Shown in pieces: positions 19,322-43,326 of a stretch of DNA of 64,000 nt. The DNA comes from Peribolospora baueri (Eukaryota). The position numbers were made by a program, and so were the translations under genes. The first letter of the stretch is position 1, and every line of letters begins with the position of its first letter. Location: NCBI GenBank assembly GCA_029717555.1, contig JAMDHS010000037.1, positions 1 to 64,000 of the forward strand, read 5' to 3'. Below the pieces are notes generated by a model. It saw only the letters and a program-made list of their open reading frames with translations. It was not told the origin of the DNA and searched no databases.

Positions 19322-22300
19322 TCAGTGGGCTGCACCCAGGGAATCCAAGTCAAGCTGAAAGAGCTCGGCCCAGTAGGCTAGTGCGTGCTCTGGTGTTTGG
19401 GAGAGTGGTGGTGCGTCTTGTCCAGAAGGGAAAAGCATGGGCCAAGAAGAATCCAGCATGATGCTGGTGCGGGTCGGGTCACCTACCGGTTGAGCAGCGA
19501 TGCGAGGGCCGCTCCCTGCGCTCCCCCCGTCACCGACACCCGCCCTAACGCTACAATCCATAGAGAAGGGAGGATCGGCGTGCCCTTGAGAATAAGGACC
19601 AACGTCGAAAGCCGGGAGGCCCGACGAGATGCCAGGGCCGCATTGCCATGCTGCAGGGCTCGAGAGGTCTACGCCAGCCGAGAAGGGTTGAGGCAAAGGG
19701 CGGATCGATGCCAGGCCCGCGGAGGTGCTGGGTGGGCTGTTACATTGCTCTGCCGAGCTATAAGGCGGAGGTTGAGTCGCAGCTTGCGGATGGGAGCGAG
19801 CAGCCCTAGCACCCAAATGTTCAGCAAAGCGTGAAAATATGAATGGGAGATCTCAGGCATGTTTTTTGAGTAAGAGAACGCGTGGCTGAACTCAGGGCGG
19901 CTGGTCGTTCACTTACCTAGCAAGCTTTTCGAGAACATGAAGTCCCCCTTTGGCCGCCTTAAGTCCTGTCCATCTCTCCGGGATCCGCTCAAATAGGTGG
20001 GCAATAGTGGAGAGATCTTCAAGAGCACTTTCAGCGAGCCGGCTAGACGGCTGAAGGAAGATGATATAAGCCCCCATGACCTGCGAATGAATGGCACGGA
20101 AAAGAAATACAAGGTCGATATCCATCCAGTTCGAGACCCTTCGTTTGATGAGACTTGCAAGGCAGCCGACGAAGTGACTCCGTAGCCACTCACAGCTACG
20201 TGGAAAGTGAAGAAGCATATCTGCCAAAACATGCCGGCACGGACAGAACCTAGCAGATTATGCATAGTTTGCTGTGCTACGGCCACAACCCGCAGTGCCT
20301 CTGCGCAGATCCTCACGCTGGTCTCATTGAGCTGATGGGTACCGGATGAACCTGGAGCAGACGTAAGGTGGGAGCGGTGGAGCAATAGAAGGGTATGATG
20401 CACTTCAATGGCAAGGTTGCATGACTGATGAAAGAGGCGCAGGCTCTTGCTCGTCCCGCTTGCCCCGCTCGTCCGGGTAGCGCCATTAGTCCGTCCTGAT
20501 CGTTCTTTGTCTGGGCCCAAAGGCTCGACATCGACCCGGAACTGAGCTGGCAAGCCGGCGTACCAAGACTGCAGCCTCTCGGTGAAGACATTGACCCGCT
20601 CCTCGCTCCACCCTCGGCCTTGAGTCTCGTCCAGCAGTTGCCGGGCGAACTCGGAGTACTGGCATTGGAGCTCTCGATAGGTCGTCGATGAGGGACAAGT
20701 AAAGCTTGAGATGCGGCAGCTGAAGCTGGTGACAGCAAGGGGTCGACCGAAGATGCCTGAAAGCAGGACGTCCAGGTGAACGATTGCCCACCTGTCCACG
20801 GATACCAGAGAGGTTAAGGTGTGTGCGACCGCGTGAACCAGAATGATGGCGAGCTTGAGAACAGCAGGCTTATGCCATCCTGCTTACCAAAGTCGACGAC
20901 GTATGTCGGCCTCAACGGGGGGGCAGTCAGTGCGAAGATTGTCCGGCTCCACGTGCAGACCGATGGATTGCGCCTGACGCGCGATACTTCCAAGCAAAGG
21001 CCTAATGGAAGAGAGAGATAAAGTCAGCAACGTACAGAAGGCCTGGTGGTAGACCAAATCCGTCCAAGAGCAACTGGGTTGAGCCCTTGCCGCGCCGGCC
21101 TCACCAGAAGCTACTTGCGCGCTCAGTGTTCATCAAGTAGCATCCTACCATTGGGAACGGGGCCAAAGCGAGTAATGTAAAAACTGGATATGCCGTGGAA
21201 TGATGCTTCGCGCTCTTCCCTGTCACTCACCAATGAGCAGCTGAGCATGAATTGTTTGCAGCGTAGGGGAACTGAGAAAGGAGCAGAGACGGAGCGATTG
21301 GTACGTGGCGGACACTGAAGGAGAAAACAAGAAGATGGTGAGGGCGTGCACAGACGACCGCAGCCGGCGTCCACGTCCCGCAAAGTTCGGTAGAGCAGAA
21401 GCGAGCGAACCTGCCTGGCCAGAGGTCAACTCACGGTACAGGTCGGCCTCGAAGTTCACGGGGTCTTCGGCTAGGACCTTGCTGCTGGAGGGAGCGGGAG
21501 CGTCTCGGGCGTTGGCATCATTTGCAGTACGAAAATTCAACAGATCGTTGGCCACCAAACCTTCGTCTCCCGCAACCCTCAAGCCTATGGCAGTATTGTC
21601 GAGGTCGCAGTTGTTTCCCAAGGCACAAATCATGAGGAAGAGAGCAAGCCACGGAAGAGAAACGCGAGACCTTTCCTCGTCGGATCGCCTAAAAAATTCG
21701 CGCGCATTTTGAATGACGCTAGGGATACCGAGTGCGGGGCAGAGAGTTGCAAAATGTTGGGTGAAAGCGTGAACAAGGCTGGAAGCAGGTGGCAGGCGGG
21801 AAATTAGGTTAGAGTCAGGCATTGAAAAGAACTTTGGATTTTCTCGGCTCTTTTTGGCTGACTCACCTTGCCGCTTCGTCGGGCTTAGGGAGTTTCGGCA
21901 GAATCTCATCGATGAAGGCTGGACCGGACGACCAAATCGTGACGAACGGAAAAGTCTCGGCTTCTGAATACAGAAGCCCAGTGACTGCAGTCTGGACGTC
22001 ACGAGTAAGAGCATTGACATCGTCCGCCGTGTTTTTGCTCGCGTTGTCGGGACTATTCTCAGCGCTTCCATGTTCAGGACTGACACTATTAGGGGCGACC
22101 TTTTGAGAAACAGACATCATTGGAAGAGGAATGGACAGGAGCAAAATCAGTGAGACGGAAAGTCGACACACAGACTCGCAATTTCGAAGGTAGCATCCTA
22201 ACAGCTCTTTCTGCACGACCGCCCAATGACTAACCTCTCGGAGGACTGCGCTGGCTGAGACCCCCTCGCCGTAATAGATATGCTGACCGTTGAGATTGCA

Positions 22301-23364
22301 AGGCGCATCAGCGCTGGGCCCGTTGGGCTGAGATGCGTCCGCTTGGGAGGAGGATTGGCAGGACCAGCCGGCTTGCAGGTCAGATGAGATGTTCGACAGT
22401 GGGCGGACATCAGGGTGCAAAGGCGGGCTTGCGGCGCAGCACATGCTCAGCCGCCGGTGATCTGAGCGGTTCAACGTATCGCCCGTCCACTCTGGCTGAA
22501 CGCCGGCTGGTTCGTTGCCAGCAGCGCGGGGAGAACGGCGTGGACTAGACTTATCGCCTTCACGAGTAGTAACAGCTGCCACTGTAGTAGAGTTGCAAGG
22601 GCTCTGCATCATAGCCTCGTCCTCAGGTCCTCTCCATTCCGCCAGCATCCTTAGAGCGGACGCTGCATCTATATCTTCGCCGCGCCCTTCCGCCCGTCCT
22701 AGAGAACTCCTACACCTCCCTGTAGCCATGCCAATAACGGTGCTCGAGGCGGCCCGAAGACTTTCATCTTGCACTTGTTGGGTCTCTCTGCCAGATCCCT
22801 TATCTGTACCAGTGATCGGAACGTTCGGGCTTGACAGGGGCGGACTCGACGGGCTCGCTGCTTGGTGGTACTTCCGCAGTTCGCGGGCAAGCTCTTCGAC
22901 TCTGCGGCGTGAGACGGCCAGTTCTGACTGCAGCCTGCGAACGTCGTAATGCCGTAGGAGCGGCGCGCATGAAGTGGTCAGTGAAACTGGCGCATCACGG
23001 GCAACATGTTACCTCCCTCCTGTACGTTGCCACCCCAGGCCCCTGCCCAGGCTTCCCTCTCTCACCTTCCTAGTTCTGAAGGTTCGCACTCGCTCCATTC
23101 ATCTTCCTCATCCGATTGCTGCTCCCTCTGCTGGTTCTGCTCCTGCTGTTGCTGCTGGCTGTTCTGGCGGACTGACTTGTCTTGCAGCTTGGCATCGTAG
23201 TGACACTCACTCTCCGCACCTGCCTTACTGCAACGTCCGCAACTCGGCCGTGCGCGATCGCAGGCTCGTTTGCCTCGATGGCAAGGTATGCAGGACTTTG
23301 GTATGCGCACCCTCTTCCTCTTCTCTGGGATTCTGGTGGGAGGAGGTTCGGCGTTGCTGGCCAT
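19322..23364 (-). CDS. Zn(II)2Cys6 fungal-specific transcription factor, multi-exon
   Basis: RVRIPKSCIPCHRGKRACDRARPSCGRCSKAGAESECHY; middle homology region (WAIVHLDVLLSGIFGRP, LLLLHRSHL); C-terminus YWAELFQLDLDSLGAAH*. Confidence 0.9.
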
Positions 23365-24246
23365 ATTTGAGCGATGTGATCGATAGATGTGGAGAAGACG
23401 GGGTTGGTGATGGCAGCAGCCAGAATGCGGAGATGTGCGTGGAGCTAAGCTCGCGTGCGGGGGCCTCTCTTCGGCTATAGCGGGGCTTGGCGGAAATTCC
23501 CGTCCCCAGAATTGTCCTCTCCCGCGCCCTGCACGTTATCCGAAATTAATTGTCCTTTCGGATAACTACAGGGGTCACACTAGGAAGGGTTCATAGCACA
23601 AGACTGCCTAGGGAAGAGAGGAGGGCACGAAAAGGAGCCTGATAGAAAGCAGGGCATGGAATGGAGTCCGGCAGGACTCGCAAGAACTTCGCAACACGGA
23701 CAGGATTCTACAATATTCCTTTGCCAACAAGGTCAGCGTGCGGTGTCACGTCACTTTTGCTCAGGGAACGCGCGGCCCGCGCTTAACACCGCAAACGCCA
23801 CGCACCCATGGCGCAAGTACAGTACGGAGCTGACCTCCATGTCGCTAACTCCGCATTGCCCATGAGCTCGGCTTTGCCTGATCTGCTCGGCACCCAAGTA
23901 AGGTAGAGTCAGAGTCAGAGTGTTGTGAAGTCATATATCTCAACACTAAGCCTCGGTCCCCTCGCTCTGGGACGTTACACCTAAATCCGTGAGTTGGAGG
24001 CTAGAACCAAACCAGCAAACGGTGACTTCTCACGATGCGCGCTCTAACCTTCTGACGTGAAGATATACCACAAAGGTTGGCCTGACTGCAATTTTAGATT
24101 CCGCAGGTCAAATGCAATGGACCAGCATGGACCTGCCCTTCTACTTTCGCTCCTAATCGTAGCCTTTCTTACAGCTTACTAGAGAGAATGCTCGATTGAA
24201 AAAGTCATGCGCGCATGTGGCGTGCAGGGACGACCTCAGTGCGCGT

Positions 24247-25920
24247 TTACAACCTGCCGGTCTGCGCTGCTTGAACGGCATGAGCTGCTGCCTCCTTGAA
24301 ATCGTCGTAAGTCGCAATGGGCAGCTTGGAATCTTGCAACTGTCACATCAAGTCCAGAACACGCCCAGTCAGCGGATATGCGTACCGTTCTCATGTTTTC
24401 GGGAGGCGACCGGCGCGTACCAATTTCTTGGCCTCCTCTGCTCCCGTTCCCTTCATCCGCGCCACGATGGGCTGCTTCATGTTGTTCTCGCGCACAGCCT
24501 CAATGATGCCCTGGGCCACAACACTGGCGAGGCATTACGAGGAGTGGTGATAAGCTAATGCTTCCATGCGATATCAGCGCTGCATTGTTGCGACTCACTT
24601 CGTGCGAGTGATTCCGCCGAAAGCTGCGCAGAGATTCGATCAGATAGTTAGACAATTGAGCAACGGCGCAGCGCCGACGCAGCAGGGGCAACGCACTGTT
24701 GATGAAAATCGCCTTCACATCAGGGTCTCGATTGAGCGTTTCCACCGCCAGCCTGGCGTTTGCCTTCGTTGCTCCTCCTCCGCCATCTAAGAAATTGGCG
24801 GACTGGAGTAAAGATACAGGTACCGGAGAATCAGCCCGAAAGAAGAGGGTGAGGAAGAGATGTTAGGGAGCTCACCTTGCCGCCTACTAGGCCTAGGCCG
24901 TCCATTGTTGCCATTGCATTGCCTGCACCATAACCGAAGCAGCCCACATTTCCGCCTGTTTAGACCAATAATTGGTCGAAGATGAGGAAAGCGGGATCAG
25001 AGTCTAGAAGGAAAAGTTCATGGTGCCACTATTGTGCGGGACTGCATAATAGTACTGCGCAACACGCACGAGACGCTTACCGTTGTTCAGCTTGATGTAA
25101 AAAAGGCCACCATCTTCGGCCAGGGCAGCGTTTGCGTTGCGGTTTCGCTTGTCGTAAATCTCCTTCAAGTTGGGCTGGCGATGCAGGGCAAAAGTGTCGA
25201 ACTCAAGGTGTGGGTCCAGCCTATGCGGATAGAAAGTGACATCGGCATCGGCATTGCATGCAGGGCAGACGTGGATAAAATCAAAGACAGCACTCACACC
25301 CTCACTTTTCCATCGTCAATGGAAAGCTTAAAGGTAAACCAAAGTCCCTCTCGCTCGTCAAAAATACGCCAAATGCTCTGAAGCACCTGTGCCGCCTTCC
25401 ACGTGAGGGGCTCAGGAAACGAGAGTCCGGCGAGCTGGGCCGTACGGATGAGGAGATCGAACGCCTGGTCGACGCTGAGCCCATTTCTGAGGTTGATCGG
25501 CAGTTGAATCACCGCCTTTGGCTCCTCCTCTTGGAGACGCATGATCCCCACAGAGCCCGGTCCCAGCTCATCATCCATCAATGAGGGCAATTTGGATGTC
25601 ACGGTACCGAGAAGCGAAGGACCGAAGTGACGGCGGACGCTGTCGTTGGCATCGGTGGGCAGAGCTTGAGGGCGGCGATCGGCATGCAAAAGAATGGAAA
25701 GAGACTTGGCTGTATTATGTGTTGTGCCGCCCTGGTCTGTGTGGTGAGCTGGTACGGGGGCCCCTGTCGATCTCAGAAATTCAATTGCAGAGCCTGCTCG
25801 TAGGTGTACTTGCCTCTTGGACGGCTGCCCTTGTCGCGTCAACGAAACAGCAGAAACTGCTGGTCGGGCGCCTGAGCAGTGCGTTGGCGAGCGAACAAAA
25901 TTAGCGAAGGTGGCGAGCAT
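24247..25920 (-). CDS. Succinyl-CoA ligase beta-subunit-like protein with truncated ATP-grasp domain; putative mitochondrial presequence
   Basis: C-terminal ligase domain GNVGCFGYGAGNAMATMD, ANFLDGGGGAT, DPDVKAIFINTFGGITRTN, PIVARMKGTGAEEAKKL. The N-terminal exon lacks KxQ..GGRGK. Confidence 0.85.
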
Positions 25921-26096: not shown

Positions 26097-26105
26097 CGGC
26101 GTTAA
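26097..26105 (+). promoter_or_regulatory. CGGYKTTWA cluster motif in the divergent beta/alpha promoter
   Basis: CGGCGTTAA, with variants CGGCGATAA (26064) and TTAAGCCG (26274). Confidence 0.6.
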
Positions 26106-26313
26106 TAGTAGAGCCGGGCAACTCACCGCATGGCCCTAATCGACTGTTGAGACTCGAGGCTAGCTCCATCAATCTCTTTGCCGATGCCTCGGACACTTGA
26201 TTCAACTTAGAATGCCGAAGTCGCTCACTCATCAAATAGCAGGCGGCCTTTTCGCGGAGTGACAACCAGCAACTTAAGCCGTTCTTTCGACATCATCCTT
26301 CTCACAAGCCAGC

Positions 26314-27876
26314 ATGGTCTTGGGGATCTCAAGCTACGTCCGTGCTGCGACCCACAGTGCCAGACCGCTGGTACGAGATAATTGCCACCAGCAGCTCTTC
26401 CGCGCTTTCAGCACATCGCAACCGGCGCATTCGTATGCAGACACCATCAAGAACGTCGCAGTGGGCCCAGAGTCCAGGGTCATTGTCCAAGGATTCACTG
26501 GTAAAGCGGTGAGCACATCTTCGAGCAGCAGTGCGCGGCATACCCGCCTCCACTATACTGACATTGACTGACACCTTGCTCGGCTCCACTAGAGCACCTT
26601 CCATTCCAAAATCTCGATGGAGATCGGCACCAATATTGTTGGCGGTGTAAGCCCTGCCAAGGGCGGGGCGACCCACCTTGACAGACCGGTCTTCGGGACC
26701 GTTCGCGAGGTCCGTAATCCCCGTGTGCACTTTCGTTCCCCTGACTACGTGCGCGCGGCATCGAATCTCTGAACTATCCTCGCGCACTGTTCACAGGCCG
26801 CCAAGCAGCTGCAGCCGCATGCAACCACTGTCTTTGTACCTCCTCAACTGGCTGCGGATGCCATCATCGAGGCAATCGAAGCCGAGATTCCTCTAATTGT
26901 CAGCGTAGCAGAGGGCATACCTGTCAAAGACCAGATGAGGGCAAGTGTCCGGGCCTCCGCCCCCAGCAGCACGGAGCTCTCAACTTCACTTTTGGCCTTG
27001 TTTTCTTTTGCAGGTCATGTCCGCCCTCCACTCGCAATCAAAGTCTCGCCTGCTGGGCGCCAACTCGCCCGGACTGATGAACCCGTGAGTCCACTCTGGC
27101 TGTGTGATACATAGTGTCACACCTAGCAGAAAAGCTCAACGCGACCTCGTTTTCGTTGACTCAAAAGTGCTGGATGCCGAATGGGCATCTCTCCTCTCAT
27201 TATAGCAAAGCCAGGATGCGTTGGTTCGTGTTGACTCACTGCTACCCGACAAGCACGAGCTTCTTTGCGTGTGCCTCAAACTGTTCACTAACCGTATCAC
27301 ACGTTCGCGTGGATGCTCGTATTTCTCTGAGCGCAGGCATCGCCGCTCGCTCTGGCACCCTTTCTTACGAAGCGGCGTGGGCAACGCGGGGTCTGGGACA
27401 AACCTACATCCTCGGTCTCGGCGGAGACTTTTATCCCGGCACGCGCACGGCCGAAGCGCTGGACTTTTTCATGCAAGATTCGCGGACTGAAGGTGAGCGT
27501 AAAAGACACACGTATCAGATGCAACTAGCCTTCCCCGGTGGCGTCTGGCCATAGTTGACGTGACCCTTCCTCGTGCCCACCAGTCATTGTTCTCGTCGGC
27601 GAGGTAGGCGGCACAATGGAGGAAGAGTGCACCGAGCTACTCCAGAGCAAGTATTGGCAAGATGGTCGGCCCGCTAAGCCCGTGGTTGGCTTCCTCTCGG
27701 GCATGAGCGTCCCGCCCGGCCAAATTTTTGGGCACAGCGGAGCGATCTGGCGCGATGGCATTGCGTCGTCCCACCAGAAAAAGGCGGTGTGGGAGCAGGC
27801 CGGTATTAGAGTCGTTGACACTATTGCGGAGGTAGGGCGCGCAGCGGAGGAAGAACTAGCGAAGCTGAAGGAGTAA
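26314..27876 (+). CDS. Succinyl-CoA ligase alpha-subunit-like protein (divergent paralog), multi-exon
   Basis: [52 protein letters not shown], phospho-His loop [10 protein letters not shown]. One GC-AG intron starts at 26941. Confidence 0.92.
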
Positions 27877-28242
27877 ATAATAGCTGAGAAGAACCCACAC
27901 GACGTCACGCGCCATCTGGAATGTGACAGCATTAGGCTCGGGTTATTCGCAGGGGTCACTTTCACTGGGCAACAAGAGCCACGGGTATACAAACGAGTCT
28001 GTCTAGTCAATGCCGTCACAACTTGATGACTTGATAGAAGGCCTACGCGTATTGTATGTATCGTTCACAAGGAGGTCCTCTCGTGGCCTCGCCGCCGTCA
28101 GTGCGGATTGTAAACACCGCAAAAGCCGTCGAAGAGAGATAGGTGCGGTGGCACAGGCCTGCTCCCGTTAGGCACTTATAGGGCGCTGGGGCCCCAAAAG
28201 CAATAGTTTCGCGGCTACCTTGACCCCGCCTCAACGTTCGAT

Positions 28243-29933: not shown

Positions 29934-30088
29934 GCTGGACTGGCTTCAAGGCAACCTAGGCTGAGCCGGTGATCCGCCGCTTTTACCACCGCCTGCTAAA
30001 CCGGGTGTGTCGTGGGATACAATCATAACTCCTCTTTGAAGTCCCCAGCTCGGGGATATAGTCGGCTGACCCGTAAGGGCCGCATGCA

Positions 30089-30157
30089 TTTTCGGCTTTA
30101 ATTTGTGTTTTCGGCTTTAATCTGTCTTTTCGGCTTTAATTGTCTTTTCGGCTTAAT
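30089..30157. repeat. Tandem array of about 19-bp units each carrying CGGCTT(T)AA
   Basis: TTTTCGGCTTTAAT.. units with cores starting at 30093, 30112, 30131 and 30149. Confidence 0.9.
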
Positions 30158-30401
30158 CCGCCTTGCACTACGCTGCTTACGCCGCACTGTACGTTGTTTA
30201 AGGTTTTGACCTTGTGGTCCAGCACGTACAGTGCGGCCTTGTGCGGCGTTAATGGATAGGCAAAGCGAGCCGTGCAAGAAGGTAGCAAGGGAGTGAGCAA
30301 CGAGGACTTGATATGACGGGGGGACCGGGCCCTGGCCAGTGCACCGAGAAGCTTCCTGTCCATTGTTCGCTGACACTTTTTACTACACTTGCTCCTTTAA
30401 C

Positions 30402-32196
30402 ATGATCGTCCCGTCACGATTTCCACTCTCCGCCTTGAAGCCCTGCTGCACGACACGAGCAATGCTCTGCCGAGCCTATCGGTGCTGGCAGACGGACGTC
30501 AGGCTCATTTCGTCCAGATCGCCTGGCAGAGCAGCATCGCCAGCAGCAACCTCGACATCACAGGTCGGTCTGTCGTCGCCTGTGACCGTTTGGGCGCAAG
30601 AGGCCGCATCACGCGTTCGCAAACAGGACGACGTTGCCGATCTCAACAGAGCTCGGCAGCTCGCCCTTTGTCTACCGCACAGGGCGGCTGTCCCCACTCG
30701 TCCAGGCAAGCAACCTCAGCTGGTAGCCAAAGGTGGAGAGGAAGTCATCGAGATAACAAAAGGGTGTCGGATGCCCAGCGGCGCCTCGTGTGAGCTTTTT
30801 TTTTTTTTTGTTTTGTTTTGGATTATTTTGTTCTTCTCTCTGTTACTATTACTCTATTGTTCTTCATTTTTGTCATTGTTATTCTGGCAAGTTTCAAGTT
30901 GGCGACGGGTTTCCCCCGCTGTCTGAAACTGACGAAGTTTCACAATACTCCACCGCTCTCTGTGTGACATTATAAAGTCACACTTTTCAACCCTCTGCTA
31001 CCAGAGCCTGTGCTAGCGAGCGATGGGACCGAACGTATGTTTGGCCCTCCGGGTGGATACGACCAACGCATGTGGGCTGGCGGGTCCGTGGAGTTCAATT
31101 CCGACAACGTGCTTCGCGTGGGAGACGAAGTGCAATGCGAAGAGAGCGTCGAGAAGGTGACTCGCTCTTGCCTGCTTGGCGGCTCGATAGCACGATTTCG
31201 CCCGTGGGCTTTGGCATTCAGCCTTTTCTTGCAAATCTAACCCCTTTTGCTTCTTCCTTTTGCCCAGGTAGAGCACAAGTCGAGCACAAGCAATGGGAGC
31301 ATGTTGCTAGTCTGGCGCAAGCTCGTGACGAGCAATTCGAATGGTGTCGTATGCACCGAGCGCCGCTGTCACGTTTACCGCAAGCCTCGCCCGCATGCCG
31401 AGATTGACCAGAGTATCAGCCCACGCAAAAAATCTCCTCGTAAGCCCAGACGCTCCCACCCGTACTCTTATCACGAGCGCCATAAATCAGCTTGAAGTTG
31501 CTCATCGCCCTCGCGGCGCTCGTTGACTCCTTCAGCTCAAGAGAGGTCCGCCGACTTCTGCATGCTCTTTCACCCTACACCGGCAACACTTTTCCGCTAC
31601 AGTGCAATTACTTTCAACGCGCACAAAATTCACTTGGACCCCCAATGTGAGAGAAAACGGGCGTCATGTGAATGTTGGCCTTGGGAAAATATACATTTCT
31701 GCACGTATTTGTGACGAAACAAGCGTCGCTGAAACCTTCTCTGCTCTTTTCATCCGAACCCAACACATATGTTGCTCGCAGACTGCCGCGCAGAAGAGGG
31801 CCACCCTGGTGAGTACATGCAACTTGCTCTAACCGCGTGCAGAGCATGACTCGAGATACTCACGGAACAATTTTCCTTCTCTGGCTCTCGCTGCTCCGTT
31901 GGCGCTTCGTAGACTGCCTCGTTCACGGACCACTAACCGCCACCTTGCTCATGTGCCTCATCGACCGTGTGGCCGGCGCTGGGTATCTTCGAAGCTTTAA
32001 GTACCGCGCAAGTTCGCCGCTCGTGGTGGGCCAAAAGGTTACGCTGAACGGGCGCTGGGTGGGAAAAGAGCCGAAAGAAGGCAATCTTCGCCAGGCAGAA
32101 CTGTGGGCTGTTGACGAGCAAGGCCTAACTTGCATGTCTGCAGAAGCGATGATTGAAGACCCTGACAGGCAAATACCTGCGACGTCGTCCGCCTAG
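30402..32196 (+). CDS. Hot-dog fold hydratase, HTD2 / itaconyl-CoA (mesaconyl-C4-CoA) hydratase-like
   Basis: LASDGTE, QRMWAGGSVEF, LFRYSAITFNAHKIHLD, EGHP-DCLVHGPLTATLL, FKYRASSPL; Arg/Ser-rich N-terminus. Confidence 0.88.
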
Positions 32197-32934
32197 TTTC
32201 ACCATGAAGGCTTCAACGGATACTGGACGGCCGTGAGACGCGAACGTTTCACTTCTGTGGGGCCCTTTTTGCGCCAGGACATCGCTACCAACGCCTGTCT
32301 TCGCTTTTTCGAACCCACATGTGTAAACACTCTTCTTCGTGATCTCAACAAGCCAAGGCGCCCACGACTGTAAGAAACGCAGAGACGGATGGCGGTGGAG
32401 TAGCAGCAAGGGGTAATTTACCTTTCTGCGCCCCGCATTCCAGTGTTAAATATTGTGTCCTGGTATTGTGTAACTGGTACATGTCCGTTAGGGAACGCTA
32501 CCTGCATTTGGACCTGTGACTACCTAGAACGTCTTGTTCGTAACGTGCATATTTCGGGTCGCTGAAGTGCAGAGTCGCAAGCGAGAGCGAGCACCGAAAG
32601 ATTGCTGACATGCTAATGTCGTCGCGGAATTCTTCGTCATCGTTGAGCGTGGCAACAAAGGGGCTGCGATCTCAATCTGCACGGCGTGTTTGTTGAACCA
32701 CTCGCAAGAAGGGAACTTTGCAAGAAGCTGTGCCTGTAGCGAGTATGCCGGATTCATACACTCGAATGCGACCTCGTATCTAGTCACGGTCGTGGGTAGG
32801 GAGGGCCCCTGATTCGTGCAGATGAAAGCGTATGGTATTTCTTGGGCACGGTCACGACCACACAGGGAGTTCTTGAAAACTGTGCGCCAATGCCCACCTA
32901 CATCCTTGTCAAGGGGCGCAAGTCGGTTACAGCT

Positions 32935-34937
32935 TTAGCTCACATCGAAGTTAACTGCCTTGATCGTCAGATACTCTTCGATCCCGTATGCACTCCCCTC
33001 TCTTCCGTATCCGCTCTCCTTTACGCCGCCAAATGGAGATTCGCATGCTGAAAGCATGCCCGTGTTCACTCCAACCTGCTCCGCGGCCGGCCGAAGAAAG
33101 AGGGGGGAGGATGGAGGGCAGCGGTTAGTACCACGTGAGAGAAAAACGATTTCAAGACGTAGCGGTAAGGCAGCAGCAAGGCTGTATCGACCTTAGATCT
33201 TAGTTGGCTCACCATCCCAGTCTCGATCCCTTCCGCCATGCGTAACGCGCGGCCAAGGTTAGTTGTGTACACATATCCACCCAAGCCCACGCTTGCGTCG
33301 TTGGCAAGCGCCAGCGCCTCCTCATCGGTGTCAAATGTACGCACTGCAGCGACGGGTCCGAACGTCTCCTCGCGCCAGATCAACATTTGGTCGGTAAGTC
33401 CCGTAACGATCGTGGGGGGAAAAAAGTAGCCACCCTCGAACGGTGTCGTCACGAAAGGTGAGGGGGCCGACCACGCCACCTTCCCGCCCACCTGGAGAGC
33501 CTGCTCAACGTGCGCGCGCGCTTTGTCCACTGCGCGTGCTGAGATGAGTGGGCCGATCACCGAGGTATGGTCGGCGCCGCCGCCAACCTTCATGTTGGCA
33601 AATGCGGCAGCAAGGCGCTGGACGAAAGCGTCATGAATATTGCGCTGCACAAAGATGCGGTTGGCGGCCACACACGTTTGGCCCGCGTTGCGCATTTTGC
33701 TCAAAACGACAGCCGCCACCGCCTTGTCGAGGTCGGCGTCCTCAAAAACAAGCGCGGGTGCGTTTCCACCAAGCTCGAGAGAGAGTTTCTTGAGGGTTTC
33801 TGCGCTCTGCTTGACTAAAAGCTTACCCACACGCGTCGAGCCCGTGAGCGAAATTTTGCGGACGCGAGGGTCGACGCACAGCGCCTCGCCTACTTCGGCA
33901 GTGTTATCCAGAGCAAGGACCACGTTGAGCACGCCTGGCGGGATCCCGCAGCGGAGCGCCAGCTCGCCCAGGGCCAAGGTTGACAGCGGGGTCTCGCCGG
34001 CCGGCTTGAGCACGGTGGTGCAGCCAGCTGCAATTGCAGCGGCCAGTTTACGAGTTGCCATTGCAAGAGGTAGCTGAATTCACGTTTCAAAAGAGGTAAG
34101 AACACGCGGGCTTTTTCTGCCAACTGTGAGCCCTTGCTACGCACGTTCCATGGGCAGAACGCTGCCACTACGCCAATGGGCTGCTTGATCGTCATGATCC
34201 TGCTCGTTGGATTGGCTGCCGGGATGGTGAGACCATACGTGCGCTCTGCCTCGCCGCTGAACCACTCGAGGAACGAGGCAGAATACACAACCTCAGCTTC
34301 CGCTTCCGCACCTGATGCGCTCGTAGGAGACATGCGAGGACAGTAAGTTGAGGCTGTGTGTGAGTAAGGACAAGAGGTTTGGTGTCGAGGAGGAAAAGAG
34401 AAGTCAAATGGGTTGCTCACGAGGCTTTCCATTTTCGGCTACGATTAGCGTCGCAATGTCGGACTTGTGAGCGAGAAGAGCATCGTTGAGGGTGCGGAGC
34501 ATCCGCGCGCGCGATCTGGCAGGAGTCCGTTTGAAGGAGACGAACGCATTGCTTGCCGCATCAATGGCCTTCCGGACATCGGCGGTGTCCATCTCAGGAA
34601 CATCTACCAAGTGCTTGCCGGTGCTGGGGTCTACAATAGAGAGTGGAAAATATGCCAGGCCGGAAACATAATGGGTTATCATCGCGTCTCGGTTTCTGAT
34701 CCCATCGTAGCATCGGTGCAGCTCAGCAAAATCTCGCTTACCCAGTACGGGGAAACGCTTGCGTCCAGTGGCCTCGACCCACTGTCCATTGATAAGTGCC
34801 TTGTCGCGGAAGAGCCCGCCATCCGTGAGCGTAGCGCCAAGCTACAACAAGGGTTAGGGTGAGAGGTGCAGAACCGGCGTCAGAAGCGCAATGCCATTAT
34901 GGTAGATTGGCGAGCCTACTGAACTTACGGTTTCCAT
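32935..34937 (-). CDS. Succinate-semialdehyde dehydrogenase-like aldehyde dehydrogenase (GabD/Uga2 type), multi-exon
   Basis: [74 protein letters not shown]. Confidence 0.93.
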
Positions 34938-35124
34938 GTTGGCGAGAAAAGTACGGATCGTTCAGTACGCAAGCAAGTAAGAGTGCCTGAGCGGGAAGAA
35001 CGCCAGAAGTGTGAGGTAGGTTACGAGCGACTGGTGTCGGAAAGCGGGAACCGTCTCATTAAGCTTCGGGCGTATATAGCGGAGTGGAGGGCCGTTTGCC
35101 CCACACAAGGGTCATGCGGTCGGG

Positions 35125-35308
35125 CGGCGTTAAAGAGGTTATCATAGACGTCGTTGAACATTCACGACGAGTAGCATTCTAGACTAACCCTACCGCGCTA
35201 TTATCCGTCTGCTGATACTCCCTGCTGGACCACTACTCAGCTTAACGCCGCCGCGCACTGGCTCACCTCCCCCGTTGCGGGTCCAAGCGGTTCACGACGT
35301 TAACGCCG
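35125..35308. promoter_or_regulatory. Three CGGCGTTAA motif copies in the divergent SSADH/flavoprotein promoter
   Basis: 35125-35133 (+), 35242-35250 (-), 35300-35308 (-). Confidence 0.7.
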
Positions 35309-35546
35309 CATCTGCCCCAACTTCTGGCTCAGTGAGGCCGGGTCCTGAGCCTCAGGAAGGATCGAGCTGTGCGGGGCCCCGGTTCACTCCATTCCGACGT
35401 CGAGCAAGGCACATTGACAGTACTTAAAGGCTGGCTGCACCTGCGAAAGTTCCATCTCTTCCATCGTCTTCAACTCTACGGAAACCCTTCTTCGGACGCG
35501 AAATTTTATATCTTCCCTTCCATCTTCCTAGCTGATACACGAGACC

Positions 35547-38500
35547 ATGGCAGGTGAGCCATTCACCGTATTCTGTCCCCATGAAGTGCGAGGTAGACAT
35601 ACTTACCACCACCCCTCGCCCCTTTCATTGCAGCTGTCGATTACGATCTTGTGGTTATCGGCTCAGGATTCGCGGGCGTACGTTGGAGTGCTTTTTTTGC
35701 TGTTTTCCCTTGCACGAACAGGATCGCTGATCTATCCCCCGCTTGCTCACCCACATTTGCAGTGTATGACCACACTCAAATTCCTGGAGACGGTACAGGA
35801 GCTGGGGAAGAAGGCCAAGGTTCTGCTTGTCGAAGCAGGAAAGGATGGCGAGCGTTGTGGAGCCTCGTGAGTCAAAAAATAGAGTGCGTAGCACGTTTTG
35901 CCAGTTTCTCACTCGCTTTCTCTATTTGTTCCTCGTACGCCCTATTTATAGGCGTTGGACGGGAGCCTTCGTGAGTCAGGAGACGCTCTAGTGGAGTGCA
36001 GCGACAAGCGTCTGTCTTTGAGCCATGCACCCAGATGATCACACAGCCTAACTGAACGACTTTCTTCCGGCCTCGAATATGCAGCTCCGCCTTGACAACG
36101 ACCTCAACTTTGACAAGGATTGGGTTAAGTACATGCACAAGACGAGCAAAGGCCTTGCAGATCAAGAGTACTGTAAAAAGCTCACTGAAGTTCGTATTCA
36201 ACCTTAAAGCCTACACGCTTGTCACGAATCGTGCTCACATGCTTCACTTTGCTGCGTTCCTAACTTTATTTTGCAGCTCGCCGGCGACACCGCCAGGTAC
36301 ATTGAGGCCAAGGGCGTGAATCTTGTTCGCCATGAGGAAAAGGTCAGCTAGCATCGACCGACTTTTTTTGGGCTGATCCGCTTCTAATCATGCGCTGGCC
36401 TTCTAAACGTACACCCAACGACTTCAAAAAACCACAGCAAGTTGCTCTTGAGTTCGACACGAATGGAGTAGGTCACGACTCGGATGAGGGATTACGTCGA
36501 ACGCGTTCTGATGCTCGTTTCCTTCACTGCCTGTTTTCACTCTGGTTTTAGCATTGTGAGCTTATCGTTCCTATATGGTACATGCGTTGAGACAGGGTGA
36601 AGCCCTTCCATTCACCGTGCTATGCCCTTCTTTTTTCTCGAAACAGTCGTCTTCCCGAAGGGTGGAGGACTTGAGATTGTGACCAAGCTCATGGGTCACA
36701 TTCAGAAATATCCCAACTGTGATGTGTGGTGGGAGACCGCTGCGGAGAAGCTCGTGACGAATGATGAGGGAGCAATCACTGGAGTGGTAGTTCGTGGCAA
36801 GGATGGGAAGCTCAAGAGGGTTACAAGCCACCACGTGATGCTGGCCTGTGGCGGTTTCGAAGGCAACCCCGAAATGCTCACCCAGTACGTCGGGCCAAAC
36901 TCAGGTGAGGAATTTCAAGCAAGCTACGGCGCAGATGACTCTTAAAGCTGCTTCTTTCCACCTTTCCACGCCTAAGTACGCGCTGTTGACTAATACCCGC
37001 CAAATTTTCGCCGATACTTGCAGTGGACCTGCCGCTCATTGCCCCGGGCCTTAAATACGTGAGTTTTGAGCTTGTGCACCCAACCATTGTCCTGGCTCGC
37101 ACAACCATATTTACTAAACAAACAATTTTGTACGCCTGTCGCCTACAGAACCGTGAGTCCTCCTTTGCTGTCTCCCTCTCTCTCCTCTTCTCCACGCTCT
37201 AAAAAAATCCCCGGCGGCTTCATTGTGGCGTAAAAAGCTGACGTACGTTTCCTGCTCAAATCACCCTTTTCCAGAAGGCGCTGGTATTCGAATGGCCAAG
37301 GAGGTCGGCGCTGGGACCTCCGGTTCATACGACGGCATTCACGCCGAACTTGTCGACACTCGATCAAAGAAACCAGATGCAGTCGTATGGGGAAATGGGT
37401 GGGTTATATCTAGTTCACCCTTGCAAGACCCTAGGGTGCGTGTTCACGTCCAGCTCAATTTGGCATTCCTGATCGGGTCGAAACCCCACACCAACCCCGA
37501 TCTTCTAGCTATGGCATATTGGTCGACAAGAACTGCAAGCGCTTCTTTGATGAAGCGCATGCAGAATTGTTTGGATCATTTGAGCTTGCCGCGTACTATA
37601 CTTGGCGCGACGCGCAACAGCAGAGCTGGCTCATATTCGACAAGACCACCTTTGATCACTTCAAGCCTGGTTGGGTAAGTGTGCTCGTGGGCCTACGATC
37701 ATTTCCAGGAACTTTGGTCTACTTAGGAGCGCTCTCGCGTGACAGCTTGCATTCAGCGCATGCACCTTTGTTCTGCAACAGCCGTGACTGCTACGTTTCT
37801 GCATGAAGGGTTAATGCCGATCTAACTGACCACTTCCCTCACTCAGGTCTACGATACGACAGAGGTTCCTCCTGAGGAGGGCAAGACAATCGGCGAACTG
37901 GCTACTAAACTCGGACTTGACCCTCAAAAGCTGGAAGCTACAGTAGCTGAGTTCAACAATGCCTGTGACTCGACGAAACAGCTGAACTTCATGAAGCTCG
38001 ACGGGAAGGGTGAGTAATGGGCGCATAAATCGTGTCCACGTTTCACCACTTCTGACCTCTGCCCTTGTGCCATTTGATGAAGGGACGGAGGGCATTCATC
38101 CGCCCAAGAGCAACTGGGCTGAGCCCCTTTGCAAAGGACCGTTTTATGGCTATCCCCTGACAGCAAACATAACCTTCACTTACGGTGGGCAGCTGCGCTG
38201 TTGGCTCATGCTCGTTGACCTTTATCTCTCACTGAGTCATGTACGACACTGCATACGATCTATTTGTGTGCTGTGCGCTCCCTTTCCTTATAGGCGGCTT
38301 GAAAGCCAACCTGGACACGCAAGTACTCGCCGAAAACGGCTCCGTTATTCAGGGTCTCTACGCAGCTGGCGAGATCCACGGCTTGTGTGAGTAGACGAGC
38401 TAGCAGCTGCCTTCTTTCCTCCGCATGTGGCTTTGATATACGCGCGCGGAACCTGACTTTCCGCCGAACTCTGTTGCAGTCTACCATGAGTACCCTCCCG

Positions 38501-38655
38501 CGACGAGTGGTGAGAACCCGACTCCTCGGATCGCTGTTAGCGACCCTGTACTCACATAGACACATGATTGATTGTTGCGCGTCTGTATCGCAGTCTTGCG
38601 GTCGCTGGCGTTTGGCGGCGTCGCAGGCACTTTCATCGCCAAACAGCTCAAGTGA
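35547..38655 (+). CDS. FAD-dependent oxidoreductase, TcuA/CobZ (tricarballylate dehydrogenase) / fumarate reductase flavoprotein family; very many small exons
   Basis: DLVVIGSGFAG, GASRWTGAFLR, VMLACGGFEGNPEML, NQGAGIRMA, GIHAELVD, YGILVDKNCKRFFDE, PKSNWA, ITFTYGGL, GLYAAGEIHGLFYHEYP. Confidence 0.82.
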
Positions 38656-39749
38656 ACGTACTGGGACCAGTTCTAATCAAACGCAAAGCTGCCGCCTTTT
38701 TTCCTATTCCTCTGTTTCATCGCTACCGACAAATGTTTCTACAAATTTGTTTTGCTCTTTTAAAGTGTTTAGCCTAAGTGAGATATGCTGAATTCTATTC
38801 CGGTCACCGTGTCACATTCTCGTTCGTGAGGCTTGTGGGTGAGAGTGTCTATGTCTGATTGCCCGTGTAGTCCGTTACTGACCTGCAAGAACAGCTCAAG
38901 CTTCGTCATCTTGTTAATGATGACGAGCACGCTGTTCCCGTGGCTATCCCGATCGCCCCAACTCTATCGACATCCGTGACGGGGACTAGCGGGCGATGAA
39001 GTCGTCGGCCATCTGAGCCAGGTCAGCGCTTCTACTGGTTTTACCCGCCAGATCGCTGAGTGGAGAAGAGGACGAGGCTCAATGAGTAACTAGACAGGAT
39101 GCGTGTAGGCTGGTAGCGCGGACTTAGCACGATCCTTCGCATCCACTTCGTCAACGAGAGGGTAAATTGAGTAAGCCGACGTCGTGAGTCCTCGTGAGCT
39201 TGATGTTCTCATCGAACGCTCCGGACCGCACCTGCACTATCGCCTTTACGCCTTGTGGAAATCGGATTGCCGGGATTAGGGTCGTCTTCGCTGACTCGCC
39301 TGTCCACAGTCCTCACTGAGCGTTTTCCTCTGCGGATCTGTGGGAATTCGACCCCTTCGGTGGTATTAGGTGAACGGCCAGAGTAGGGAACATACGCATT
39401 GATAGTCCGAGTGACTGCAGTTGGAAAGGCTCGGTACCAGTCTCCTGATCCCCAGTCTAGTTCGTACTTGCGAGCAGAAGAGCTGCGACGCCCAACAGCG
39501 ATTGGGGGCCTCGAAGCAATGCCGGTAGTTACACCTGCCCCGTTGGGAGCTGCCTGCTTCGTCGGAACCGGCGCGTCAGCAATAGAATTTTTTTCGCCTC
39601 TCCGGGCCTCCCCAAAATCTGTACCCCATTCGACTGATACACGTGTACGCAGATTCCGAAAGTGGCCTCGATTTGCGCTCGCCCGGGCTCCCCGGCACAA
39701 ATAGACCGAATTCTCTAGGACCTCCACACTCCCAATCGACAGCGTAGAG

Positions 39750-39816
39750 GCAATATTCCACTCCACGCTTCCCTCGGCCCACACTTCACTCGGCAGTGCA
39801 ATATTCCACTCCACGC
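39750..39816. repeat. 19-bp direct repeat GCAATATTCCACTCCACGC x2
   Basis: Copies at 39750-39768 and 39798-39816, a partial third near 39824-39834, then a (TGTCG)n microsatellite. Confidence 0.85.
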
Positions 39817-40205
39817 CTCCCCCCGCAGTGCAATACTCAGGAGTGTTGTGTCGTGTCGTGTCGTGTCATCTCGTCGCCATCCTGGTTTGTCAGCTTTCAA
39901 GGCAGACCTCGTCACCGATGCGCCGCTCGCCTCTCTTATAGTACTCTCGGGCTGCACTCATCGCTCAGGTGGATCTGGAGCCTGTATTGCATGTAGCTCG
40001 CACCGGATGACAACCCTTATGCTCAACTCGATATCGTCCCTCGCAGTGCCCAGCACGGGAGCAAATGCAGTTCTTCGGGTAGAGAGGGAGACGAAGGAAC
40101 AGAGTGGGCCGATGCCTCGAGCCAGGCATGTTGGACCGAATCGGACATGGAAAGCGTTGGACACGACCCTCATCCTTACGCCATATTTGAGTTCAGGTCG
40201 CGCGA

Positions 40206-41923
40206 TCAGCGGAGTCCATCGGCAAGCAAACGCAGCCTTTCCAGAACAACGAAGGTGATGATAGTCTGAACAAGTCGATGACGGAGGAGTCCAAGTCAGC
40301 ACCGCCGCGCTACGATAGATAGTTTTCCCCATTTATTACCTACATCAACCTGACTTATGAGCTTACATTTGGCGACAGCCGAATCCATGCGGGTACCCAG
40401 CCGCGGAATAGTCCTCTTGGACCCTGTTCCTTGAGCAAAGCCAAGAGCGCGGCGCGGAAGCTGCTCAGCTGGGTGTTCGATTTCATTGCTCTTGCTTTGA
40501 GAACGCTTTAGTCGAACGGCGTCCACAGTTAACAAAAATATGTGTAAAACAGTTGAAAATTTAGCATAAAACCGCTTGGCGAAGTTGCCAGTGCATGTTT
40601 CCCATGCACATGTAGCAGCGGCTCTTCGCCTCCCATTTCAACGCCTACCGAGCCACTTACTCAAAGGGTGAGGACACGGTTGTCGCGATTGTGCCTGCGC
40701 AGAAAGAAGCACTAAAGTGGAGCTTGATGTCCTCTTCGAGTAGACCACATGATAACAGTAACCCCTTGAAGAAATCATACCTGTCCATGTAAGAGAGCCG
40801 ATAGGTATCGACGGGTCAGAGTGCAACAGCCGAAGAGGCAAAGTCAGCCTTGGTATGCCTACCTTTGTCCACCTCTAAAAAGCGGTACTTACGTTGCAAG
40901 TTGGCTGACATTCATCATTGCCGCCCGCATGGTGTTGGAAACGAGGCCCCGAAAGACGCTGGAAGGTCCCTCCGATTGAATCATTCTGGCCAGAGCATCA
41001 ACGCAGTGCCGATAGTCGTAACGCTGTCCAGGGAGAAACACGCCCGTAAGCCCCGGGCAACGAGTCGAGTGACAGCATGTGCACATAGGTCGGGAAATAA
41101 GGAGAGGTCAAGACGAATCAGCAAGGCGGACGAATAGCAAACCCCAGCAACCCCCAGGGACAGACACCTTTGCTGGGGGCTGATCAATATCTGAAGTCAT
41201 GCGGACCAGTGCAACGTCTGCGGATATTGGTGCAGCGGCGAGTGTATTGTCAGCAGGATAATACATATACTCCAGAGCGCGTTGCATCAAAGTCAAGACG
41301 ACACAGGAGGACGGAGCGCTAAGGCAATGCCTCTGGGTCTTTCTTGTCTTGGGCACCCAATCAAGAGTATGCAGTGCTCACCTGCCGGATTACCGACAAT
41401 CCCACCTGCAACGCCAGCAATCCCGGCACACAGCGCCATTTTCCAGAACGGAGGCGAGTCCCCCGATGTTTGAGAAGACTGGTGTAGTAATTGCTTCAGC
41501 TTTGCGTACGTGCCGAAACTGGAATAATCGCAAAACAGAACGAAAGAGTGAACAATTAGTAGCCTGTAGAAGCGCGATAGCCAGTGGAAGCGCGATAGCC
41601 TGTGGAAGCACGATGCTCCGAGGCTCCGGCCACAGGCGCCCTTCTTATTCTGATTTGGAGTCAAGCAACATTCGACTTTTAGGATACGATTCTTTGCGCT
41701 GTCCTCACCGTGTTACACCGTAAGTCATTTGTCTAAGGAGGCTCGCACTTAAACCTACATATAAGCCCCTCGCGCCGGCAGCTTTTGCCGTGCTGGCGAG
41801 CATTCCAAGAAGCTTGCCTTCTCCATGCCTTGTCTGCATCCTTGTCTTCACCAGGTCGAGCGGGTGGGTACAGCAGGCCGCAATGCAGCCGGAGACACCG
41901 CCAAGCAGGAAGTTGCCTGACAT
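40206..41923 (-). CDS. DIC1: Mitochondrial dicarboxylate carrier (SLC25A10/Dic1-like)
   Basis: THPLDLVKTRMQ, GLSASLLRQMTYGVTR, GNPADVALVRM, RAAMMNVSQLATYD, HFSASFCAG, SPFDVLKAR, WIRLSPNTIITF. Confidence 0.88.
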
Positions 41924-42160
41924 GGTTTGCTGCAAGTCAGTACTGGCAGTATGTTGTCGAAGTTCCAAGGGTGGTTGAGTCTTGATCGCCGCCACAATTT
42001 CCTGGGTGAAGTGGGACGGCTTGGGATCAACGATGGGTGGTATGCGTTGCGACTGGCGATATGACTCTCGCTTTTTAGGAACCACGCCAGTACGACGAAA
42101 ACGACACGACAGCTTTCCTTACCTCTGGCTTTCTCACAGCGGAGAAGCATTGCTGTGCAA

Positions 42161-42339
42161 TAAACGCCGCTTAAGCTGCAGTGCACCATATCATGTGTGA
42201 CTCTGCTGCGTGTTGTGCAAAAGGTAAATCTTAAAGCCGCAGAGGCTGTTACGGCTCTAGTGTTCCCTGCCGTTCGGTTCGGCTTTAACAATTGGCAGAC
42301 GTATCTTCTGTCTTCTGGTCCTGGTCCTAATAAACACCG
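42161..42339. promoter_or_regulatory. Four CGGYKTTWA motif copies upstream of the dicarboxylate carrier
   Basis: TAAACGCCG 42161, TTAAAGCCG 42231, CGGCTTTAA 42280, TAAACACCG 42331. Confidence 0.7.
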
Positions 42340-42460
42340 CGGGCGGCTAGTAGTAAACATGGGATTCCCAGCTTTCCTTAAGAGGGGGGGTAGATGTGTT
42401 TTGTATTCACCAGTGGCGACTCCGTCCTGGGACTGGACGGGAACGCCTGGGCCACGCATC

Positions 42461-43326
42461 TCAGCTCCTACCAGACTTTTGCGATTCGGACGTGGCTTGA
42501 GAACTTGTCGTGGCCAGGCGCTCGTGCTGGGTAGCTTTTTCGACGGGCTATGTGAAAGTAACAGCACGCATCCTGGTCAGTTTTCCATCTCTACCATCCT
42601 CGGAATTCTCCTGCAACGAGAGCGCCATCGCTATCTCACTTGTTCCCATGCGTTGCGGTTGACGGTGAAGATTTCAGCAGCCGGTCTGGGATAGCTGCCA
42701 GCTTCCGTGAGAGCGAACAGGCCGAGTTTTATCACTGTCTTTCCTGGCCGGCTAGGGCCAACAGTGTGAATAGGGGAGCCACACCCGCCGCAGAAGAAAC
42801 GGCTGGTCGTATTACCGCTATGAGTGTCGCTGTCACGGTCTGTAGGGACATTGAGCAAAATACTCCCTTAAGCTTATTGCCGGACCGTAAGTACCATTGA
42901 GGGGAGCAATGGACGCCAGGAGAGCAGGCGCAAGGAATATTACAGCAAGGTAGTAAGGACAATCAATGGGAAAACTCTTACATTCGCGTGGACTGCCCTT
43001 GATCTCGAGATCCTGCAACATCACCACTGTCACTAAGGAGAAGGCTACGAGGCCAGTGCAGAATCCAGGTGGTAGAGTCATTTGGTTAGAAGTGAAATTT
43101 TAGGTCATCTGCCAGCAAGTTCGGCGCTGTATTGTACCTGATCCAGCCGTAGTTTGGCAGTTTCTGCAGTGTAAGGACAGAAGCGCGTGAGCGATCAGGT
43201 GTGCCTCAATGATGAAAAAGGACGCATCGCTCACTTGCAGTGACACACCAAAGGCGTAAGTGGCAAGCTGCCATCCGAGACCGTAACCTGGATGTCACCG
43301 CATAAGCACCTTCCAATGAGAGGCAT
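42461..43326 (-). CDS. GFA / Mss4-like (CENP-V, DUF636) zinc-binding protein, multi-exon
   Basis: GRCLCGDI, VCHC-x-NCQ, RFFCGGCGSPI, KLGLF, EIFTVNRNAW. Confidence 0.85.

Follow-up and report, generated by a model that had tools for sequence, protein, structure and literature searches.

A succinyl-CoA synthetase-derived gene pair in a candidate cluster for degradation of itaconate or a related C5 dicarboxylate in Peribolospora baueri

The stretch of DNA considered here, referred to as the window, is the first 64,000 nucleotides of contig JAMDHS010000037.1 of Peribolospora baueri (assembly GCA_029717555.1), and the question raised by its positions 19322-43326 is whether nine neighbouring genes make up a single catabolic pathway and, if they do, how the acid they degrade is activated. 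The block is a real cluster, a variant of a known pathway with a component derived from succinyl-CoA synthetase (SCS). We lean towards it being a pathway-specific, co-regulated catabolic cluster that degrades itaconate, or a close branched C5 dicarboxylate, via coenzyme A (CoA) esters and probably in the mitochondrion; the substrate, the compartment, the directions of the reactions and the formation of CoA esters are what we infer from sequence. In the pathway proposed the carrier would import the acid, a heterodimer of SCS-derived alpha-like and beta-like subunits would make the acyl-CoA, an itaconyl-CoA hydratase (Ich)-type enzyme would convert this to citramalyl-CoA and a CLYBL/Ccl-type lyase would cleave citramalyl-CoA to acetyl-CoA and pyruvate. 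A mitochondrial setting is suggested by the N-termini of the alpha-like, beta-like and CitE-type proteins, which look presequence-like by eye, and by a mitochondrial carrier in the same block.

The DNA of the window is eukaryotic and rich in introns, of ~70-110 nt, and the unit of the scans was the stop-to-stop open reading frame (ORF). Pfam was run on 177 ORFs of at least 70 amino acids (18337-44792) and on 128 plus-strand ORFs of at least 30 amino acids, NCBIfam on 122 ORFs, and a domain search on 120 ORFs of at least 115 amino acids in the flanks; single exons were also compared with 177,635 PDB sequences. Family assignments thus come from exons or from database orthologs rather than from joined spliced proteins, and the many introns of 70-110 nt that interrupt the genes keep the exon-level scores low. 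The alpha-like, beta-like and CitE-type genes were modelled with a protein-guided spliced aligner written for the analysis, the models of the hydratase, flavoprotein, carrier, transcription factor and GFA protein are approximate, and ab initio exon chaining made errors. Between 19322 and 43326 the Pfam and NCBIfam scans recovered all nine of the families that an earlier note on this DNA had listed from the letters and ORF translations, and the end that the note gave to the block, 43326, coincides with the computed ATG of the GFA gene. The note had also remarked on the want of a CoA transferase, and no such domain occurs in the scanned ORFs of the 64-kb window, the 120 flanking ORFs included. 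The nearest relatives of the window proteins, as judged from protein searches with the alpha and beta exons, are in the Ustilaginomycotina. The four genes at the core of the argument are the following.

24247..25920, minus strand: SCS-beta-like gene; exons 25298-25920, 25081-25220, 24876-24955, 24697-24802, 24599-24623, 24421-24523 and 24247-24339; 389 amino acids
26314..27876, plus strand: SCS-alpha-like gene; exons 26314-26508, 26593-26709, 26797-26940, 27014-27084, 27168-27223, 27337-27492 and 27584-27876; 343 amino acids
28243..29933, plus strand: CitE/CLYBL-type acyl-CoA lyase; ~8 exons, approximate; N-terminal presequence-like stretch
30402..32196 (start approximate), plus strand: Ich-type double hot-dog protein; ORFs 30968-31237, 31241-31492, 31496-31711 and 31813-32193

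The case for a C5 acid begins with the hydratase and the lyase. All three hydratase exons that were searched match the solved structure of Ich (8KHG/8HUC) and do so colinearly, as listed below, the only other PDB match being one archaeal dehydratase with the last exon; in Pfam the gene gives FAS1_DH_region only (E 8e-4).

Hydratase exon ORF 30968-31237: Ich residues 71-109 of 275, E 0.032
Hydratase exon ORF 31496-31711: Ich residues 161-190 of 275, E 4.3e-5
Hydratase exon ORF 31813-32193: Ich residues 202-252 of 275, E 0.006

In the lyase gene the Pfam family HpcH_HpaI is found on two exons (E 9e-9 and 6e-14), and the best solved match of the largest exon is human CLYBL (5VXC, E 2.2e-6), with the Glu of the 'IES' motif and the 'ED' pair aligned. 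CLYBL is the human citramalyl-CoA lyase, and these conserved Glu and Asp residues are metal ligands. A protein search with the lyase exon gave one relative only (P0055, 45% identity). The view of the earlier note that these are enzymes of the Ich and CLYBL/Ccl kinds finds support in the colinear exon matches of the one and in the CLYBL and RipC_Ccl matches of the other. The Ich-type and Ccl-type genes adjoin each other and also the SCS-like pair, and according to PMC12290011, Ich and Ccl are the sole pathway-specific enzymes of itaconate degradation and SCS can activate itaconate.

The same enzyme logic could serve another small hydroxy or unsaturated dicarboxylate, such as mesaconate or beta-methylmalate (giving glyoxylate and propionyl-CoA), malate via malyl-CoA, or tricarballylate or aconitate through the TcuA-like flavoprotein of the block, although we regard this as unlikely. 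CitE-family lyases and MaoC-type hydratases are established to be promiscuous over C4-C5 CoA esters, TcuA is the best-named family for five of the flavoprotein exons, and the citE and RipC_Ccl models score about equally on the lyase. The solved relative of the hydratase is nevertheless an itaconyl-CoA hydratase, the best match of the lyase is CLYBL and not a malyl-CoA lyase, and on four of four beta exons the malate--CoA ligase model lies under sucC. The particular combination of a malate thiokinase with a malyl-CoA lyase was rejected on that last NCBIfam result, which holds for every beta exon.

If the acid is itaconate or its like, the step that needs explaining is its activation, for which the SCS-like pair is the candidate. 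The alpha-like gene has the Pfam domains CoA_binding and Ligase_CoA and is colinear with positions 20-288 of 291 of NCBIfam sucD. Four exons of the beta-like gene are colinear with sucC 212-363, with weak SCS-beta matches in the PDB and nothing in the Pfam scan. The two genes are divergent with a 393-bp promoter between them. The seven-exon beta model comes from a spliced alignment guided by P0041; two guide proteins out of three gave one and the same seven-exon alpha model, and with the other a single intron was shifted. The third alpha intron (26941-27013) has an apparent GC donor (GCAAGT) instead of GT, which the frame requires in the spliced alignment.

A search with the alpha exon returned 30 proteins, of which 11 carry an organism name and 10 of those belong to genera of the Ustilaginomycotina, namely Ustilago, Sporisorium, Pseudozyma, Melanopsichium, Testicularia, Violaceomyces, Jaminaea, Parajaminaea, Microstroma and Sympodiomycopsis; this lineage was checked for Violaceomyces, Meira and Jaminaea. 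The eleventh (P0006) is filed under the fern Adiantum nelumboides and falls in the same 90% cluster as the alpha-like protein of Meira miltonrushii; the fern assembly probably contains fungal DNA here. The alpha-like protein of the window is 60-71% identical to the Ustilaginomycotina orthologs and 44-47% to bacterial SucD. A metagenome scan based on P0008 gave 80 loci at ~40% identity, all of them ordinary bacterial sucD. When 1.84 billion representatives were searched exhaustively with HMMER for the N-terminal beta ORF, only 23 proteins came out at E of 1e-3 or better, of which three, being long repetitive proteins, are taken as spurious; identity to the credible matches is 45-63%, and the beta orthologs are 369-404 amino acids long. 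The two genes likewise lie side by side in Violaceomyces, where a single 49,184-bp contig carries PWN51802.1 (alpha) and PWN51803.1 (beta-like), and in Sporisorium graminicola, as EX895_003988 next to EX895_003989; this adjacency was read from accession numbers, for the alpha/beta pair alone. The best solved relatives of the two proteins are mitochondrial, pig alpha scoring 302 bits where the best bacterial match has 252 and human SUCLA2 165 bits where the best bacterial match has 147, and therefore the pair looks like a duplicate of the fungus's own mitochondrial SCS. The suggestion of the earlier note, a dedicated paralog pair distinct from the housekeeping SCS, is supported by the loss of the ATP-grasp motifs from the beta-like protein and by the adjacency of the two genes in two further Ustilaginomycotina.

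What sets the beta-like protein apart is its N-terminal half. Pfam ATP-grasp_2 is found in none of nine beta-like proteins at E 0.01 or better, and Ligase_CoA, in four of the nine (whole in three and truncated inside the domain in the fourth, E 1e-17 to 4e-8), is the sole domain scored. A profile of 17 beta-family sequences matches solved SCS-beta only from canonical residue 129-137 onwards (E 2.1e-47, to SUCLA2 137-392), and the first ~110 positions of the profile align to no solved SCS-beta. Four family members were aligned with three canonical SucC sequences taken from bacterial metagenome loci. The lysine strand and glycine-rich loop, canonically VVKAQ(V/I)H(A/S)G(G/A)RGKAGGV, read (I/L)L(H/S)ADR(R/D)P(Q/K) in all four, ~30 residues downstream of the replaced segment are deleted, and the EINP motif, (V/I)E(I/V)NPL, has become (W)F(T/S)F(K/D/E/T)L, the Asp after it being kept in three members and replaced by Ala in one. 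In the E. coli structures the corresponding segments include Lys46, the phosphate-binding glycine-rich loop, the adenine hinge, Glu197 and Asn199. The segment before GAG also differs, (C/S)FGYGAGNAM in all four against (M/I)(V/I)NGAGLAM in two of the three canonical sequences, a region that lines the succinate site.

These changes have left the fold in place. The AlphaFold model of the Violaceomyces beta ortholog (predicted local distance difference test score, pLDDT, 80) matches SCS-beta in Foldseek with E 1.4e-22 over ~340 columns, and 151 residues of an Atlas model (residues 33-235) align to a basidiomycete SCS-beta ATP-grasp domain with a template modelling (TM) score of 0.61. The remodelled N-domain has invariant residues of its own across the 17 sequences (A, R, G, P, three G and two F), which points to selection and not to decay. 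The alpha-like protein retains the catalytic His loop FGHSGAI as well as GEVGG and SRSGTL, and its ortholog P0066 aligns over residues 8-306 to pig alpha 6-303 (E 5.9e-89).

With its ATP-grasp motifs lost, the beta-like protein has what looks like a degenerate nucleotide site, and an ordinary nucleoside triphosphate (NTP)-dependent ligase is therefore doubtful; the pair may still bind NTP in a manner that can no longer be recognised. This is where the earlier note, which had the pair act as a succinyl-CoA ligase, fares worst, as activation dependent on ATP or GTP is hard to reconcile with such a site. Nucleotide-independent half-reactions of SCS are known, and a tentative proposal, rather improbable as it stands, is that the pair is a phosphate-dependent, phosphohistidine-mediated CoA transferase from succinyl-CoA to itaconate (or another C5 acid) that uses no ATP or GTP and is conserved across the Ustilaginomycotina. 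Succinyl-CoA, inorganic phosphate and the enzyme histidine would react at the CoA/acid site to give phosphohistidine, succinate and CoA, and the phosphoenzyme would then drive the joining of itaconate or other C5 acid with CoA to the acyl-CoA. If true, CoA transferases would gain a new mechanistic class, one that arose from a Krebs-cycle ligase and here stands in for the absent CoA transferase Ict. In any case a conserved SCS paralog with a phosphohistidine subunit and without the ATP-grasp motifs is unexplained, and may reveal a new means of CoA-ester synthesis.

The loss of these motifs also bears on whether the pair is an enzyme at all, as it could be a pseudoenzyme, regulator or scaffold with the CoA ester made by the housekeeping SCS or by a CoA transferase encoded elsewhere. 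We regard this as very unlikely. It would account for the ATP-grasp_2 result in the nine beta-like proteins and for the motif losses in the alignment, and housekeeping SCS can activate itaconate according to PMC12290011. Set against this, the alpha-like protein has kept the catalytic His and full CoA-binding and ligase domains, the C-terminal domain of the beta-like protein is well conserved (that same match to SUCLA2), and its N-domain has the invariant residues seen in 17 sequences.

Whether the genes belong together can be asked of their promoters. The pattern CGGCNTTAA, reached by way of a k-mer scan over seven intergenic regions, has 11 copies in the 64-kb window, where 1.15 would be expected; the maximum among shuffled sequences was 4, and 0 of 100 shuffles reached 11. 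All 11 copies lie at 26097-42288, inside the cluster, and the other 40 kb of the window have none. Ten of the 11 are intergenic and fall in four promoter regions (beta/alpha 1, hydratase 4, ALDH/flavoprotein 3, carrier 2, where ALDH is aldehyde dehydrogenase), and the eleventh is inside a predicted intron of the flavoprotein gene. When matches within 60 bp were merged and all 9,996 patterns of the same shape with at least 3 sites were tested, CGGCNTTAA came first, with 6 of 7 merged sites in promoters, which make up 6.5% of the window (p 4.8e-7, Bonferroni 4.8e-3). Variants with one mismatch are also enriched (7 of 39 in promoters) and are present upstream of the transcription factor, CitE and GFA genes. 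The elements and the adjoining transcription factor are as follows.

26097..26105, plus strand: CGGCGTTAA element in the 393-bp divergent beta/alpha promoter
30089..30252, plus strand: four CGGCNTTAA elements upstream of the hydratase, three in an array at 30089-30154 and one at 30244
35125..35308, no strand assigned: three CGGCGTTAA elements in the divergent ALDH/flavoprotein promoter
42231..42288, no strand assigned: two CGGCTTTAA elements 300-365 bp upstream of the carrier ATG
19322..23400 (span approximate), minus strand: Zn2Cys6 transcription factor; Pfam Zn_clus at 23182-23295, E 5.5e-7, on ORF 23065-23535

The tandem array at 30089-30154 has a 19-bp unit, TTTTCGGCTTTAATTTGTC, in 3.5 copies with 91% matches, and as this unit contains the cluster motif the array resembles a multimerised binding site. 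Positions 35295-35308 read CGACGTTAACGCCG, a near-palindrome of the CGG-N8-CCG type, and sites of this type are the kind bound by Zn2Cys6 dimers. Beyond its Zn_clus domain the transcription factor gene gives a faint Fungal_trans match (E 0.082, ORF 20887-21129), and its remaining long minus-strand ORFs have no Pfam family. Since the motif is confined to the cluster and lies mostly in promoters, co-regulation is supported, and the pattern argues for control by the adjacent Zn2Cys6 factor. This factor would turn the cluster genes on via the CGGCNTTAA sites, with CGGCGTTAACGCCG as a putative target sequence, and motif and factor together constitute a testable regulon.

The remaining four genes of the block are these.

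32935..34937, minus strand: ALDH of the succinate semialdehyde dehydrogenase (SSADH) subfamily; ~495 amino acids, ab initio model, first small exon uncertain; Aldedh on four ORFs
35547..38655, plus strand: soluble FAD enzyme of the fumarate-reductase/TcuA group; ~14 exons, approximate; FAD_binding_2
40657..41923 (model partial), minus strand: mitochondrial carrier family protein; Mito_carr on two exons, E 1.6e-17 and 2.5e-5; ATG at 41923
42634..43326, minus strand: GFA/CENP-V-type zinc protein; Pfam GFA on two exons, E 7.3e-7 and 5e-4; ATG at 43326

The ALDH exons cover positions 1-74, 74-130, 129-417 and 410-448 of the model TIGR01780 (57.8, 67.2, 355.6 and 49.6 bits), a sum of 530 bits against a cut-off of 646 that underestimates, being exon-wise, the score of the whole protein. 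Five exons of the flavoprotein are colinear on the TcuA model NF006130 with 162 bits summed, below the cut-off of 369, its N-terminal exons lying outside the scan. Its nearest solved relative is urocanate reductase (6T85, E 7e-6), followed by soluble fumarate reductases, flavocytochrome c3 and KstD, enzymes that reduce or form a C=C bond beside a carboxylate or carbonyl; an Atlas search with its exon found generic FAD_binding_2 clusters only. For the carrier the sequence gave Mito_carr at the level of the family, and its likeness to Dic1 is putative. The FAD enzyme would act at a C=C or CH-CH bond beside a carboxylate, and the SSADH-like ALDH together with the GFA protein might feed in related compounds or deal with reactive side products. 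On this reading the redox and aldehyde enzymes would broaden the range of acids that the pathway accepts. The earlier note had the flavoprotein and ALDH extend the route upstream, and of this the placing of the one in the fumarate-/urocanate-reductase/TcuA group and the other among SSADH-like enzymes stands; the series it proposed, from a semialdehyde to methylsuccinate to mesaconate or itaconate, or else tricarballylate desaturation, is still speculation.

It might also be that the neighbourhood is partly accidental, with a core of SCS-like pair, lyase and hydratase lying beside a housekeeping SSADH of the gamma-aminobutyrate (GABA) shunt, a soluble fumarate reductase, a dicarboxylate carrier and the GFA gene. 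The ALDH does score as an SSADH, and yeast-type fumarate reductase 2 is among the matches of the flavoprotein. This is nonetheless quite improbable given that the ALDH/flavoprotein promoter holds three exact motifs and the carrier promoter two, when the other 40 kb have none.

A number of points weigh against a co-regulated cluster for a C5 dicarboxylate. The scores of the hydratase and lyase are all exon-level and far under the NCBIfam equivalog cut-offs, RipC_Ccl on three lyase exons summing to ~69 bits against a cut-off of 375 with citE about equal, and the hydratase has no NCBIfam match among the 122 ORFs. The CitE promoter (27877-28242) is without an exact copy of the motif and has one variant with a single mismatch only. 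The ALDH matches SSADH well and might be no more than an ordinary GABA-shunt gene. Finally, textbook SCS chemistry does not explain the activation step, the nucleotide site of the beta-like protein having, as it looks, been lost.

The DNA around and within the block has features of its own. In the ~1.8 kb between flavoprotein and carrier (38800-40650) no gene is detectable, with no family match on either strand in the Pfam and NCBIfam scans, and there are short repeats, for example peptide words of the SVEWNIA / NIPLHAS type, in read-through frames. The left flank is of a different character and looks like a separate, sugar-type catabolic block at 823-17000, with the genes listed below; the AnmK kinase family includes the fungal levoglucosan kinase.

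823-1582 and 5441-5884: two GFO/IDH/MocA oxidoreductases
3492-4316: histidine phosphatase
9332-11090, minus strand: second fungal transcription factor (Fungal_trans)
13103-14140, minus strand: sugar transporter
16276-16635: AnmK-family kinase

The right flank has F-box, HIT, C2H2 and tubulin-cofactor-D genes. Between 44000 and 60000 the GC content is 60-66%, against ~55% in the cluster, and long ORFs without a Pfam match are found on both strands, examples on the minus strand being 57347-59749 (801 amino acids), 46158-47576 (473 amino acids) and 54769-56244 (492 amino acids).

These genes may also matter in practice, as Ustilago and its relatives are industrial producers of itaconate, for which the cluster offers candidate degradation genes. 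A 2024 paper (PMC11626831) states that for Ustilago no pathway of itaconate degradation is on record, even though itaconate declines in long cultures. Orthologs of the SCS-like pair occur in Ustilago, Sporisorium and Pseudozyma, and their deletion could raise itaconate yields. A search of the literature turned up no account of a fungal cluster that joins an SCS-derived pair to Ich and Ccl, nor of a tricarballylate dehydrogenase in Ustilago or of SCS paralogs in Ustilaginomycotina.

How the block differs from known systems is best seen from its parts. With SucCD and SUCLG1-SUCLA2 it shares an alpha-like subunit that aligns end to end with pig SCS-alpha and a C-terminal half of beta that aligns with SUCLA2, the fold being kept, whereas VVKAQ..GGRGK is here LLHADRRPQ, ~30 residues are lost and EINP is FTF(K/D/E). 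The mammalian route, made up of SUCLG1 with SUCLG2 or SUCLA2, followed by AUH and CLYBL, likewise begins with SCS-type activation and ends with a CLYBL-type lyase, but it relies on the housekeeping SCS, whose nucleotide site is intact, and on a hydratase of the crotonase type, where the fungal block has a degenerate paralog and a hot-dog hydratase. The itaconate-methylsuccinate cluster of Pseudomonas and Cupriavidus (ich, ict, ccl, acyl-CoA dehydrogenase and methylsuccinate isomerase) is similar, according to PMC12290011, in the Ich fold (8KHG/8HUC), in Ccl and in a redox extension for C5 acids. It differs in having a CoA transferase and an acyl-CoA dehydrogenase acting on CoA esters, in place of which the fungal block has an FAD enzyme of the free-acid type, an ALDH and the SCS-like pair.

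A further comparison is with IctA-IchA-CclA of Aspergillus terreus and A. niger, also a fungal and mitochondrial route in which a CoA ester undergoes Ich-type hydration and a citramalyl-CoA lyase then yields acetyl-CoA and pyruvate; according to PMC6320622, IctA, IchA and CclA of A. niger have predicted mitochondrial targeting sequences. Unlike the window, where no CoA transferase is found, Aspergillus uses the CoA transferase IctA, and the same source states that its genes are unclustered. In P. baueri an SCS-derived pair stands beside the lyase and hydratase genes, and the block adds to these a transcription factor, carrier, flavoprotein, ALDH and GFA protein.

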